From a virus (Duplodnaviria; Heunggongvirae; Uroviricota; Caudoviricetes): a DNA stretch of 13,807 nucleotides. This document shows, one piece after another, positions 5,934 to 13,807 of the stretch. The position numbers and the translations under genes were made by a program. A model generated the notes under the pieces. It did not search any database. It worked only from the letters and a program-made list of their open reading frames with translations, and had not been told where the DNA came from. Position 1 is the stretch's first letter. Each line of letters opens with the position of its first letter. The stretch is taken from the IMG/VR virus record IMGVR_UViG_2778261065_000014. One strand, 5' to 3'.

Positions 5934-6359
5934 TTAGTGCATCACCACAGCATTTCCTGCCGGGCCACCACGATTCATCTGATTGAAACCGGCGATTGCC
6001 ACTGCGACAAAATCATCAGCGTCTCTCACCAGTCGTTCCCGCGTCTCCACCAACTCCCGAAAATAGGCTGAACTGTGGCTGCGCATCCGGGCCACCAGCA
6101 GAGGTGGCATTGCTTTTTCGATTGCTGGTAACAACGCCTGAATTTTTTCAACCGCATCAGTGGTGTCTTTCTCCACCCAGCGGAAAATTTTCTGAGTATT
6201 ACGAGCCAGGGCTTCTGGATGGCTGTCGTCGTACAGTTCCGGGGACGTCATTCCCAGTTCGAAATAAGCCCTGGTTATCTTGGCCGCCGGAACTTTTTCA
6301 CCATCCGGACGCGCCCAGGCATTCATAGCCATGCGGATGTGTTCATGCTTGATTTTCAT
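5934..6359 (-). CDS. ydaT: YdaT-like protein (Rac prophage YdaT family; function debated: CII-like regulator or toxin)
   Basis: N-terminus MKIKHEHI.. and overall length match my recollection of Rac YdaT. Start overlaps the upstream cro-like stop (ATGA overlap at 6356-6359), indicating translational coupling. Confidence 0.75.
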   Translation of the reverse strand: MKIKHEHIRMAMNAWARPDGEKVPAAKITRAYFELGMTSPELYDDSHPEALARNTQKIFRWVEKDTTDAVEKIQALLPAIEKAMPPLLVARMRSHSSAYFRELVETRERLVRDADDFVAVAIAGFNQMNRGGPAGNAVVMH

Positions 6360-6583
6360 GAATCATTCTTTCCTTCGTTCAAGGTGTTATCCTTCTTTTT
6401 GTAAAGTTCTGGGTTCAAAGATAATTTTCCCTTGGAGTATGCGGCAGCTTCCGCGGCCCTCCCCTTGGGAACTATTTCACCAGGACGTTTGCGCCACATG
6501 TATATAGCTTCACGGGTTATCCCATAAAAATCGGCAACTCTCTGAACAGAGCCAAAAAACTGGACAAGTTCATCAACTCGCAT
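6356..6583 (-). CDS. Cro/YdaS-like small HTH DNA-binding protein (75 aa)
   Basis: Perfect AGGAGG 5 nt upstream of the ATG at 6581-6583 (minus strand). HTH-like segment VADFYGITREAIYMWRKRPG. Divergent from the CI-like repressor gene. Confidence 0.8.
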   Translation of the reverse strand: MRVDELVQFFGSVQRVADFYGITREAIYMWRKRPGEIVPKGRAAEAAAYSKGKLSLNPELYKKKDNTLNEGKNDS

Positions 6584-6604
6584 TTCACCCTCCTAAAACT
6601 AAGT

Positions 6605-6640
6605 ATTTTTAGATTAAAGGATAATTTTTTTTAGGTCAAT
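6605..6640 (-). promoter_or_regulatory. pR-like promoter for the cro/ydaT/replication operon, inside the divergent immunity control region
   Basis: On the minus strand: -35 TTGACC (plus-strand 6634-6639), 17-bp spacer, -10 TAATCT (plus-strand 6611-6616), then a short leader with AGGAGG. Flanked by the inverted 9-mers TTTTAGATT (6607-6615) and AATCTAAAA (6644-6652). Confidence 0.5.
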
Positions 6641-6675
6641 GCAATCTAAAATAATTTATATTCAATTCACGGGAG

Positions 6676-7326
6676 ATGATGATGGAAAGCCTTGGCATTA
6701 GGCTTAAGAGACTCAGAAAAGACAAGGGACTGACCCAAGTCGAACTGGGCAAGCTTTCTGGCGTAACAGGGGTAACTATAGGGTACTGGGAGAAAGACCT
6801 AAACGAACCCGGTAGCAAAGCTCTTAGTAAATTAGCCCAAGCACTAGGAACTACTGAGTCCTATCTCCTATATGGAGTATCGTCTACTGAACCTACCCTT
6901 GTGCAGAACAATTCAGGCACCCAAATCCCCTATCTTTCATGGGGGGAAGCAATTTCTTTCCTAATTTTAGAAGGAGAGAAAACTATGGGAAATGCCGACA
7001 GAATCACCACATTCTTTGACGTCAAGGAGGGGGATTTTGCCGTTTCAATGCCTGATGACACTATGCACAACCCATCAGGGTCGCCAAGCATTCCGGTTGG
7101 TGCCACAGTGATCATGAGGCCTAGAGAAAAATATAAAAATGGTAGTATCGTCGCTGTAATAGTCCCAGATCCGCTTACAAACGAACCATCTATGACTATA
7201 AAAAAATTAGTCATCGACGGAAAACTCGTGTATTTAAGCCCCCTCAATCCTCGCTATCAATCGTCCTTACTGACACCTGAATGTAAAATTGTTGCTGTAG
7301 CAAAAGGTGTGCAGTTCAGCCTATAG
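6676..7326 (+). CDS. CI-type prophage repressor with N-terminal XRE-family HTH and C-terminal LexA-like S24 self-cleaving peptidase domain
   Basis: HTH LTQVELGKLSGVTGVTIGYWE; S24 serine motif AVSMPDD and lysine in TIKKLV. Three consecutive ATGs at 6676-6684 with GGGAG just upstream, so the true start is probably the third Met (6682). Followed by a terminator. Confidence 0.85.
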   Translation: MMMESLGIRLKRLRKDKGLTQVELGKLSGVTGVTIGYWEKDLNEPGSKALSKLAQALGTTESYLLYGVSSTEPTLVQNNSGTQIPYLSWGEAISFLILEGEKTMGNADRITTFFDVKEGDFAVSMPDDTMHNPSGSPSIPVGATVIMRPREKYKNGSIVAVIVPDPLTNEPSMTIKKLVIDGKLVYLSPLNPRYQSSLLTPECKIVAVAKGVQFSL

Positions 7327-7348
7327 CTTCCACTTTGTTTTTCAATCA

Positions 7349-7375
7349 GAGGTCGGCTTTGTCGACCTTTTTTTA
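7349..7375 (+). terminator. Rho-independent terminator after the repressor gene
   Basis: Stem AGGTCG (7350-7355) / CGACCT (7363-7368) with 7-nt loop, followed by a T tract at 7369-7375; 23 nt after the stop at 7324-7326. Confidence 0.65.
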
Positions 7376-7393
7376 AATATATCTAGATCGCGC

Positions 7394-7428
7394 TTGACTA
7401 TAAAACTAAATAGATTTAGTTTTATAGT
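7394..7428. promoter_or_regulatory. Perfect 15-bp inverted repeat (operator-like, OL analogue) overlapping a TTGACT -35-like hexamer
   Basis: ACTATAAAACTAAAT (7397-7411), AG, ATTTAGTTTTATAGT (7414-7428): 15 of 15 complementary. TTGACT at 7394-7399; TATAGT at 7423-7428. Sits where lambda has OL/pL, between the repressor terminator and the early-left genes. Confidence 0.45.
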
Positions 7429-7517
7429 ATACCACCCCGCCCCACAGAACGCAGGGCAATACTTCGAGTTACCAGGCAGTGGTCAGGGGTTAAGTAGCCA
7501 GCCCGAGGCGTAAGAAC

Positions 7518-7748
7518 ATGACGGCAGGGTTCAACTTTAACTATGCAGCAGGTTTTTGTTCCGCCACCCCGGCGTTAAGGGGAAATGAGGTCAGCATGGA
7601 TACTATCGATCTTGGCAACAGCGAATCTCTGGTATGTGGCGTGTTCCCCAACCAGGACGGTACGTTCACCGCGATGACATATACCAAAAGCAAAACGTTT
7701 AAAACCGAAACTGGCGCGCATCGCTGGTTAGCCAGAAACACTGACTGA
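7518..7748 (+). CDS. Small hypothetical early protein (76 aa; alternative start at Met 7596 with GAGG RBS)
   Basis: First ORF after the operator-like palindrome. GAGG lies 9 nt upstream of the ATG at 7518. Its stop overlaps the next start (TGATG at 7746-7750). Confidence 0.5.
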   Translation: MTAGFNFNYAAGFCSATPALRGNEVSMDTIDLGNSESLVCGVFPNQDGTFTAMTYTKSKTFKTETGAHRWLARNTD

Positions 7749-8149: not shown

Positions 8150-8901
8150 TCCATCCATGTTTACGGGATAGATAAAGATATATCGCTTCGAAACCATCGA
8201 CATGGTTTGGATAGCCTTCCTCAGCAGCAAGGTTATCCCCAAAACATTCAAGAATATAATTTAAACGCGCTGTTTAATAATGAATCTTCCAGCGAGTCTA
8301 ATTTAGTTTGCTGACCATTTTAATTTTATCCTCCATTGAGGTTACTGGTTGAGAATGGAGACCACACGTGACAGCGCGTGGTCGTGCGCCGGACACGGAT
8401 AAGAATCCGGCACAAACAGTTTACTGAAAGGATATATCCCTGAAAAGTCAGGGCATAACGCGAAAGCGCACGGCGAAGTCATTCCTCCCTTTGTTGTGTA
8501 CCACTGACATCTTCGTCTGTGCGCTTCCGGTTGTGGCAATCCGCGAAATGGCGCGGCGGTAAGTATGGCGGGGTTATTCCTTCCCCGTTGAGGACACCGG
8601 GTTGTCAGGTTGACCATACGCTTAAGTGGCAACCCCGCTGCAACGCCCTCTGTTATCAATTTTCTGGTGACGTTTGGCGGTATCAGTTTTACTCCGTGAC
8701 TGCTCTGCCGCCCTTTTTAAAGTGAATTTTGTGATGCGGTGAATGCGGCTAAGCGCACGCGGAACAGTTAAAAAGGCCAGTTGACTTCCGTATTGGTTCT
8801 TATGGGTGGGTTCTCTGTATCCGGCGTTAATTGTTAACTGGTTAACGTCACCTGGAGGCACCAGGCACCGTATCACAAAATTCATTGTTGAGGACGCGAT
8901 A

Positions 8902-9090
8902 ATGGAAACGTTATTACCAAACGTTAATACGTCTGAAGGTTGTTTTGAAATTGGTGTCAGAATCAGTAACCCTGTATTTACTGAAGATGCCATTAATAAG
9001 AGAAAACACGAACGGGAGCTATTAAATCAAATATGCATTGTATCAATGCTGGCCCGTTTACGTCTGATGCAAAAAGGATACTGGCAATGA
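8902..9090 (+). CDS. Small hypothetical phage protein (62 aa)
   Basis: GAGGA at 8890-8894 lies 7 nt before the ATG at 8902. Its stop overlaps the next gene start (ATGA at 9087-9090). The ORF-track entry 8806-9090 is a longer GTG-initiated version of the same frame. Confidence 0.5.
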   Translation: METLLPNVNTSEGCFEIGVRISNPVFTEDAINKRKHERELLNQICIVSMLARLRLMQKGYWQ

Positions 9091-13481: not shown

Positions 13482-13807
13482 TTTATTAATTATCAAATGG
13501 TTACTATTCATGACTCTTGAAATCCATGAATTCAAGCGCAGTGCCCAGCCATCCCGATACTGCTGCTTTCACCAAATCCTTAGTGCTTCTTTCGTGTTTT
13601 TCTATTGTCATAATGGTTATCTCTAAAAAAGAGGTAAGATGCGTACTACTTACTCGCCGTTATTGGTATTATTCAGAAAAAGTGAGTAAGACTTTGCAGC
13701 AATGCTTTTGATCCTGTTCAAATAAACTAATGGCATCAGCAACATTAGACTGGCCCCCTGAATCTCCAGACAACCAGTATCACTTAAATAAGTGATAGTC
13801 TTAATAC

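Follow-up and report, generated by a model that had tools for sequence, protein, structure and literature searches.

A perfect 32-bp palindrome predicted to be the principal early-left operator of an Escherichia coli lambdoid prophage

The window, by which we mean the whole stretch of 13,807 nucleotides that was analysed, is 100% identical to a prophage of Escherichia coli strain MB07081 and represents the immunity and early-left region of an E. coli lambdoid prophage. According to annotation, Pfam and Rfam, the minus strand carries replication genes, ydaT and cro, and the plus strand carries, in this order, cI, a terminator, a palindrome, ydfA, a hypothetical gene, DicF, dicB, a DUF1482 gene, an exonuclease gene, xis and int (Table 1). 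The exonuclease, of 823 aa and encoded by recE, lies between the DUF1482 gene and xis, and ydfD also belongs to the controlled operon. This gene order puts the palindrome at the place of lambda OL/PL and of Qin dicBp, as a sequence-only reading had proposed: like a lambdoid OL, it is adjacent to the repressor gene, on the 3' side of this cI-like gene and its terminator, and stands at the head of the early-left operon, here ydfA-DicF-dicB-recE-xis-int. DicF is full-length (52 of 52 model positions, 76.7 bits) and was the sole match in an Rfam scan of the window at gathering thresholds, and a permissive Rfam scan of 7330-7650 returned chance-level matches only. With DicF and dicB in the operon, the prophage carries cell-division inhibitors, like Qin.

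Other elements of the window deserve mention in their own right. The prophage arm also encodes a truncated Hok/Gef pseudogene and a zeta-toxin family gene (87-239 and 1265-1963, from the annotation of L001). Directly 3' of the hypothetical gene that comes after the zeta-toxin family gene, an inverted repeat with 10-bp arms (AAAACCTCAC-TCGATT-GTGAGGTTTT, 2628-2653) resembles a bidirectional terminator. Beyond int, near the prophage end and adjoining a ynaK pseudogene, there is a 20-bp inverted repeat with 9-bp arms (TATCACTTAAATAAGTGATA, 13778-13797), the outer hexamers of which, TATCAC and GTGATA, are the lambda operator consensus half-sites.

Table 1. Features of the immunity and early-left region, with positions in the window.
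Feature	Position	Strand	Basis or remark
Cro (Pfam P22_Cro)	6356..6583	-	annotation, Pfam
OR1 core CTAAGTATTTTTAG, 1 mismatch, overlaps predicted PR -10/+1	6599..6612		motif scan
OR2 core ATAATTTTTTTTAG, 2 mismatches, 22 bp from OR1	6621..6634		motif scan
OR3 core CTAAAATAATTTAT, 1 mismatch, 25 bp from OR2, overlaps predicted PRM	6646..6659		motif scan
cI-type repressor, 214 aa, HTH_3 N-terminal and S24-like (Peptidase_S24-like) C-terminal domain	6682..7326	+	Pfam
Intrinsic terminator, end of repressor gene transcript	7348..7370	+	terminator scan
Candidate weak OL2, TTAAA-TATA-TCTAG, 2 mismatches, centred 33 bp upstream of OL1	7373..7386		alignment
-35 hexamer TTGACT of PL/dicBp-equivalent promoter	7394..7399	+	invariant in clades A and C; also in heteroimmune L015 and L016
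Perfect palindrome, 15-bp arms, AG centre	7397..7428		read as probable OL1, with the symmetry continuing for another 5 bp at either end
Operator core CTAAA-TAGA-TTTAG	7406..7419		motif scan
-10 hexamer TAGTTT, 17 bp after -35, within right arm	7417..7422	+	inference for the window itself
Predicted transcription start, A of ATACC, 7 nt after -10	7429	+	comparison with heteroimmune phages
Early-left operon leader	7429..7595	+	sequence comparison; 90-97% identical to heteroimmune phages
ydfA (DUF1391), first gene of controlled operon	7596..7748	+	annotation, Pfam
DicF small RNA, inside controlled operon	8662..8713	+	Rfam
dicB cell-division inhibitor, inside controlled operon	8902..9090	+	annotation

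An inverted-repeat search returned two arms of 15 nt each, 7397-7411 (ACTATAAAACTAAAT) and 7414-7428 (ATTTAGTTTTATAGT), which are 100% complementary and separated by AG. The 15 of 15 pairing claimed earlier was thereby borne out; the start had been put at 7394, which takes in the TTG of the TTGACT hexamer, while the palindrome proper spans 32 bp from 7397 to 7428. It is the longest perfect inverted repeat anywhere in the 13.8-kb window. Shuffling the entire window 300 times with dinucleotides preserved gave no perfect arm longer than 12 (gap 0-6), and the expected number of such repeats is ~0.006 in 13.8 kb even at the local AT-rich composition, statistics which exclude a chance origin of the palindrome. 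As a single-stranded hairpin it has a dG of -10.2 kcal/mol (z = -6.6 versus shuffles).

The hexamers TTGACT (7394-7399) and TATAGT (7423-7428) are both present and 23 bp apart, as the sequence-only reading had described, and this spacing is indeed noncanonical, but a TAGTTT at the canonical 17 bp from TTGACT had been missed. In the window, TTGACT-17-TAGTTT fails a sigma-70 scan because TAGTTT matches only three of the six -10 positions, whereas TTGACT-17-TAGATT, the form found in a related lineage (clade C, see below; phage vB_EcoS-689R5), passes, and it is the sole promoter-like site that the scan found in the clade C homologue. The -10 hexamer is TAGATT throughout clade C and TATATT in clade B. 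Similarity to phages of other immunity begins at 7432, immediately past the palindrome, and the conserved block of three heteroimmune relatives opens with the same ATACC; together with the distance of A7429 from the -10, this places the predicted start at or near 7429. With such a start, the palindrome would cover about -32 to -1, with its centre at -16.5, and TATAGT would be the discriminator region, though TATAGT could conceivably act as the -10 of a weak, alternative promoter. The only promoter found by scanning the window, TTTATA-17-TATATT on the minus strand, was discarded as spurious, since the total number of hits was what chance would give.

The leader, which runs for 165 nt from the promoter to ydfA, shows its 90-97% identity with phages of unrelated immunity (L015, L016 and L017), and the module boundary lies at, or no more than about 3 nt from, the predicted +1. 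The leader has a C-rich 5' end (ACCACCCCGCCCCAC), an ATG at 7518 and no Rfam match; it might conceivably serve as a rut site or encode a small ORF from this ATG. A put-like or antiterminator structure in the leader was considered and rejected, as the fold of 7429-7600 is no stabler than shuffles (z = +1.15).

CTAAA-N4-TTTAG has a single exact match in the window, the core of the palindrome. When up to two mismatches are allowed, the window holds eight such sites, which is no more than chance, and five of the eight lie in OR or OL, as do all three of the sites with at most one mismatch. Three of these five core sites start at 6599, 6621 and 6646, with the spacing (22 and 25 bp) of a lambda-like tripartite OR; the other two start at 7373 and 7406. 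Scored with the half-site consensus AAAWCTAAAW, the best three 22-mers in the window are 7402-7423 (20/20), 6595-6616 (18/20) and 6642-6663 (17/20), the last two both inside the 98-bp cI-cro intergenic region. As this consensus is partly derived from the palindrome and from OR1 (6595-6616), the independent matches are only OR3, OR2 and OL2, and among the top three it is 6642-6663 that provides independent confirmation. The palindrome and the cI-cro sites (OR) thus share an operator sequence, as is the case for a lambdoid OL.

The candidate OL2 has at most two mismatches in clades A, B and C (read off the alignment), and its consensus score of 13/20 is indistinguishable from that of 28 other sites, so that on its own it is statistical background; it was kept as a candidate only because of its position and its conservation across the clades. 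No third OL operator was found by the motif scans, which yielded one exact site (7406-7419) and one site with two mismatches (7373-7386), and the three tandem OL operators of a lambdoid phage are accordingly not seen here. The motif common with the OR sites does not extend to the outermost 5 bp of either arm, so operator function leaves the full 32-bp symmetry unexplained. The pattern GACNNNAAAACTAAATANNNTTA was also searched for in genome and metagenome contigs, and was set aside, since among the matches listed most were chance hits in AT-rich genomes; in viral contigs it was useful only once filtered for the conserved leader.

In a phmmer search of the PDB, the N-terminal domain of the repressor (WP_000444616.1) was most similar to the DNA-binding domain of P22 c2, whose structure was solved on operator DNA (1adr, 3jxb and 2r1j, E = 2.5e-7 to 5.9e-7, residues 4-67). 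Repressor residues 1-67 are near-identical across clades A, B and C, with 1-2 substitutions in any clade, and the OR1-3 cores are invariant across the three clades, which should therefore be homoimmune. Cro (WP_001261751.1) is probably a second protein that binds the same operators. Among GenBank phages the closest are uncharacterised induced prophages, at an amino-acid identity of 92.5%, followed by others at 42%; this immunity is not shared by any characterised phage, and the literature yielded nothing on this immunity type, only the Qin and CP-933P analogues.

Alignment of the repressor with lambda cI gave a further observation, in that the S24-like domain appears to be without all three autocleavage hallmarks: Ala-Ile stands for lambda Ala111-Gly112, Thr (DDTM) for Ser149 (GNSM) and Val for Lys192. 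Owing to this apparent loss, the repressor may escape RecA-dependent cleavage and may need another induction route. The altered motif is conserved across all three clades, yet one prophage of clade C was obtained as an induced phage. Where the repressor gene begins (6676-6684), clade A has three successive in-frame ATG codons (ATGATGATG), the third of which is the annotated start, and clades B and C have AAAATGATG or AAAATAATG.

Three heteroimmune relatives, namely phage Evi (L015) and two E. coli prophages, have the same leader and different repressors. In the interval from the -35 to the conserved ATACC, each of them has an inverted repeat of its own (AGTTTAAT-GTTT-ATTAAACT, AAGGTAAC-TCTT-GTTACCTT and ATACC-TATG-GGTAT), and the next-best match to each of these repeats in its locus falls within the cro-cI intergenic region of that locus. 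The site therefore changes with the repressor while the flanking modules are shared, which is the immunity specificity of a lambdoid OL. Along with the core motif in the cI-cro intergenic region, these OR-matching repeats argue for an operator that would control the early-left operon, one of the options raised in the sequence-only reading.

Of 5,426 complete E. coli genomes, about 474 have this OL region, O157:H7 and O111:H8 among them, and the accompanying repressor genes form three clades, A (the window type), B and C. Members of clade A have 0-1 differences among them over 645 nt of cI, whereas the cI of clade B (e.g. O111:H8) has 62 differences from A, and that of clade C (e.g. O157:H7 and the induced phage vB_EcoS-689R5) differs from A at 75-87 sites and from B at 90-95. 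The OL class follows the cI clade in all 51 loci with a readable cI (of 56 loci). The -35 and the left arm are essentially constant among the clades; from the second centre base, the right arm reads GATTTAGTTTTATAGT in clade A, CTTTTAGATTTATTGC in clade C and TTCTTATATTCATTGC in clade B, the natural OL variants, given as centre and right arm, being AG ATTTAGTTTT (A), AC TTTTAGATTT (C) and AT TCTTATATTC (B). Pairing is perfect in clade A only, and clade C pairs at 11 of 15 positions. Clade A is represented in 18 of the complete genomes; 12 of its 17 sampled loci are perfect, and the other five carry TATGGT and pair at 14/15. The exact 32-mer is present in six IMG/VR contigs, each time in the same context. 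This conservation within clade A was rejected as a sign of selection, because cI itself differs by only 0-1 nt within the clade.

In clade B (L012 and ten other loci), three lineage-specific, clustered changes in the same arm reduce the symmetry and turn the -10 into the better TATATT. Clade B also has a different -35 (TTGACG), and its changes run opposite to those of the window's clade. Partial states occur elsewhere: L010 and L051 have TATAGT next to a clade C core, and L014 has TAGTTT on a clade C background. L010 and L051, which have a clade C1 repressor, combine a clade-A-like outer arm and start region (TATAGTATGCC; compared with L006, clade A) with a clade C operator core, a pattern which suggests a recombination breakpoint within the operator/-10 region rather than exactly at +1.

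For the origin of the symmetry, the state common to clades B and C was taken as ancestral. Since cI and the adjacent intergenic sequence put A nearer to B, the C-like arm is the ancestral one; the converse, that the perfect palindrome is ancestral and the relatives decayed, was rejected, as B and C share non-palindromic states although A is nearer to B. On this comparison of sequences, the perfect symmetry is derived and confined to one young clade, having arisen from an ancestral 11/15 quasipalindrome. The 'unusual perfection' noted earlier is hence real as far as the symmetry is concerned, but it is not a property of the operator family, the homoimmune relatives pairing at 11/15.

The four clade-A changes (7414, 7420, 7426 and 7428) all restore pairing with the left arm. 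Clade-A-specific substitutions are found at 26 of 994 aligned sites overall and at 4 of 16 in the right arm, compared with 0 of 19 in the -35 and left arm and 0 of 162 in the leader. The excess in the right arm has P = 7e-4 if the overall rate is assumed and P = 0.013 with the rate of the upstream spacer, which evolves fast, and the probability that four random right-arm substitutions are exactly the symmetrising four is about 9e-6. Clustering and symmetrisation together point to a directional process. At the -10, one of the four turns TAGATT into the weaker TAGTTT, and a fifth clade-A difference, C to G in the centre at 7413, is not templated. No intermediates with part of the four changes were seen within the sampled clade A. 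Both selection for a tighter operator and a quasipalindrome template switch fit such a directional change equally as candidate explanations.

Taken together, the palindrome is very likely OL1, the principal operator of the early-left promoter (PL of lambda, dicBp of Qin) of this E. coli lambdoid prophage. A repressor dimer would bind to two half-sites, AAAACTAAAT, with about four central bases between them left uncontacted, and Cro would probably occupy the same site in lytic growth. The palindrome fills the gap from the -35 TTGACT to the predicted start A7429; as the site takes up the spacer and the -10 of TTGACT-17-TAGTTT, bound repressor is proposed to exclude RNA polymerase, which would keep the ydfA-DicF-dicB-ydfD-recE-xis-int operon silent in the lysogen. 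The weak site 33 bp upstream and the three OR sites ~800 bp away may help by cooperativity or looping. Symmetrisation most likely resulted in a tighter operator and a slightly weaker -10, and this combination would mean less leakage of the toxic DicB/DicF genes. Perfect symmetry is, on the other hand, no guarantee of higher affinity; lambda repressor recognises its two half-sites in an asymmetric way. That protein binds here, where transcription starts and that the promoter is repressed are what we infer from the DNA sequence and its comparison with relatives.

The outer 5 bp of symmetry, being absent from the motif shared with OR, could also speak for a different dimeric protein, either a host factor or a phage regulator of the early-left operon or of excision. 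We consider this highly improbable, given that the core motif is common to three cI-cro intergenic sites, that the site co-varies with the cI clade, that the heteroimmune relatives have their own OR-like repeat at the same position, and that no further regulator gene is evident between cI and ydfA. Even less credible is a function through DNA or RNA structure, be it as a cruciform, as a terminator or processing hairpin, or as a replication or recombination signal. A perfect AT-rich repeat with 15-bp arms can extrude under supercoiling, and the hairpin stability given above is in line with this; however, the palindrome, with its AT-rich stem followed by ATACCACC, has neither a G+C-rich stem nor a T-run and is thus not terminator-like, and the terminator scan detects the real terminator (7348-7370) and not the palindrome. 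A start at 7429 would moreover leave the palindrome outside the PL transcript, hairpin formation is not conserved, as homoimmune relatives function with 11/15 or poorer symmetry, and the palindrome has no Rfam family match. Another dimeric protein and a cruciform-prone element, which had both been put forward from the sequence alone, are therefore alternatives that are unneeded and without support.

A further possibility, which we hold to be unlikely but to be taken seriously, accepts the operator and concerns its symmetry, which would be the by-product of a single quasipalindrome template switch that copied the left arm onto the right, was inherited by clade A and has little or no functional meaning. 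Template switching makes E. coli quasipalindromes into perfect or more perfect inverted repeats (PMC7202029). The locus has both an ancestral imperfect repeat and clustered changes, four within 16 bp, every one of them templated by the opposite arm; the symmetry runs 5 bp past the OR-shared motif on each side, for which selection on the operator offers no explanation; and clade A is so young that conservation is uninformative on selection. The partial states TATAGT (L010 and L051) and TAGTTT (L014), however, fit stepwise change or recombination, and the centre difference at 7413 is untemplated. The equally clustered changes in the same arm of clade B, by which symmetry goes down and the -10 improves, look instead like selection on promoter/operator strength. 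More doubtful still is the reading in which homoimmune lineages tune one OL in opposite directions, such that in clade A a single template switch would have created a 'super-operator' with a weakened -10 that locks the toxic DicB/DicF operon, and clade B would have degraded the same arm into a better -10.

As OL1, the palindrome is an ordinary kind of element, comparable to lambda OL1/PL, P22 OL, Qin dicBp and CP-933P PL933P, and only its perfect symmetry is unusual. It resembles lambda OL/PL in its position relative to cI, in the overlap with a predicted promoter, in the motif common with a tripartite OR and in its predicted use by CI and Cro; as in lambda, the OR sites are centred about -16, -41 and -63 from the predicted PRM start. 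In lambda, P22 and Qin there are three operators at OL. Those of lambda are strong and imperfectly symmetric 17-bp operators, in contrast to the one 22-bp site found here, which is perfectly symmetric in clade A. P22 c2 has the closest solved DNA-binding domain homologue, so that homology to the DNA-binding domain of a P22 c2-type repressor is present, and Cro falls into Pfam P22_Cro. P22 operators also consist of two short half-sites around about four central bases, as proposed here, and this geometry is all that the two kinds of operator have in common. The P22 half-site is of the TTAAG type and differs from the CTAAA (AAAWCTAAAW) seen here, and the recognition-helix residues are VTGVTIGYWE here versus VSNVAISQWE in P22. 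The lac Osym operator is a synthetic, perfectly symmetric form of an imperfect operator that binds its repressor more tightly, an effect that was measured, whereas the symmetric form in the window is natural and a predicted operator.

In Qin, DicA represses dicBp 22-fold via operators predicted to overlap dicBp (PMC10448788). The promoter there is likewise 3' of the repressor gene, heads the ydfA...dicF-dicB-ydfD operon and is a PL analogue under a cI analogue (PMC10448788), and the site in the window also heads a ydfA...dicF-dicB operon. Unlike Qin, which has the 135-aa DicA, the prophage described here encodes a 214-aa two-domain repressor (HTH and S24-like), and its promoter and leader are not homologous to K-12 DNA, the similarity to K-12 and DH1 beginning at 7558, just 5' of and into ydfA; neither a short DicA-type repressor nor homology in the promoter region is thus shared with dicBp. 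Three operators were reported at dicBp (PMC10448788), as opposed to one strong and one weak candidate here. In CP-933P of E. coli O157:H7, PL933P is repressed about 100-fold by PaaR2 (CI analogue) and YdaS (Cro analogue) (PMC8630535). This lambdoid switch is similar in having a YdaS-type Cro and a YdaT-type CII, and the operators of its PL-type promoter resemble OR (PMC8630535). A repeat of the CP-933P type (GTTTAGT...) is found in phage Evi (L015), which has the window's leader. CP-933P differs in its repressor family (PaaR2), in its half-site GTTTAGTAA and in the three OL operators that were reported (PMC8630535), and it is heteroimmune to the window prophage.

With this analysis, an operator motif, OR1-3, OL1-2 and a PL-type promoter are now assigned, as predictions, for a common uncharacterised E. 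coli prophage immunity group. The DicF and DicB carried by these prophages affect cell division and phage resistance, and the predicted control site makes their regulation testable. The finding is mildly interesting for its natural allelic series and its possible template-switch origin: the three natural OL variants, perfect, ancestral and degraded, under one repressor form an allelic series for the trade-off between operator symmetry and -10 strength. If homoimmune lineages did tune one OL in opposite directions, the arm over the -10 would be a hotspot at which a known mutational mechanism feeds multi-base regulatory changes that are retained by selection.
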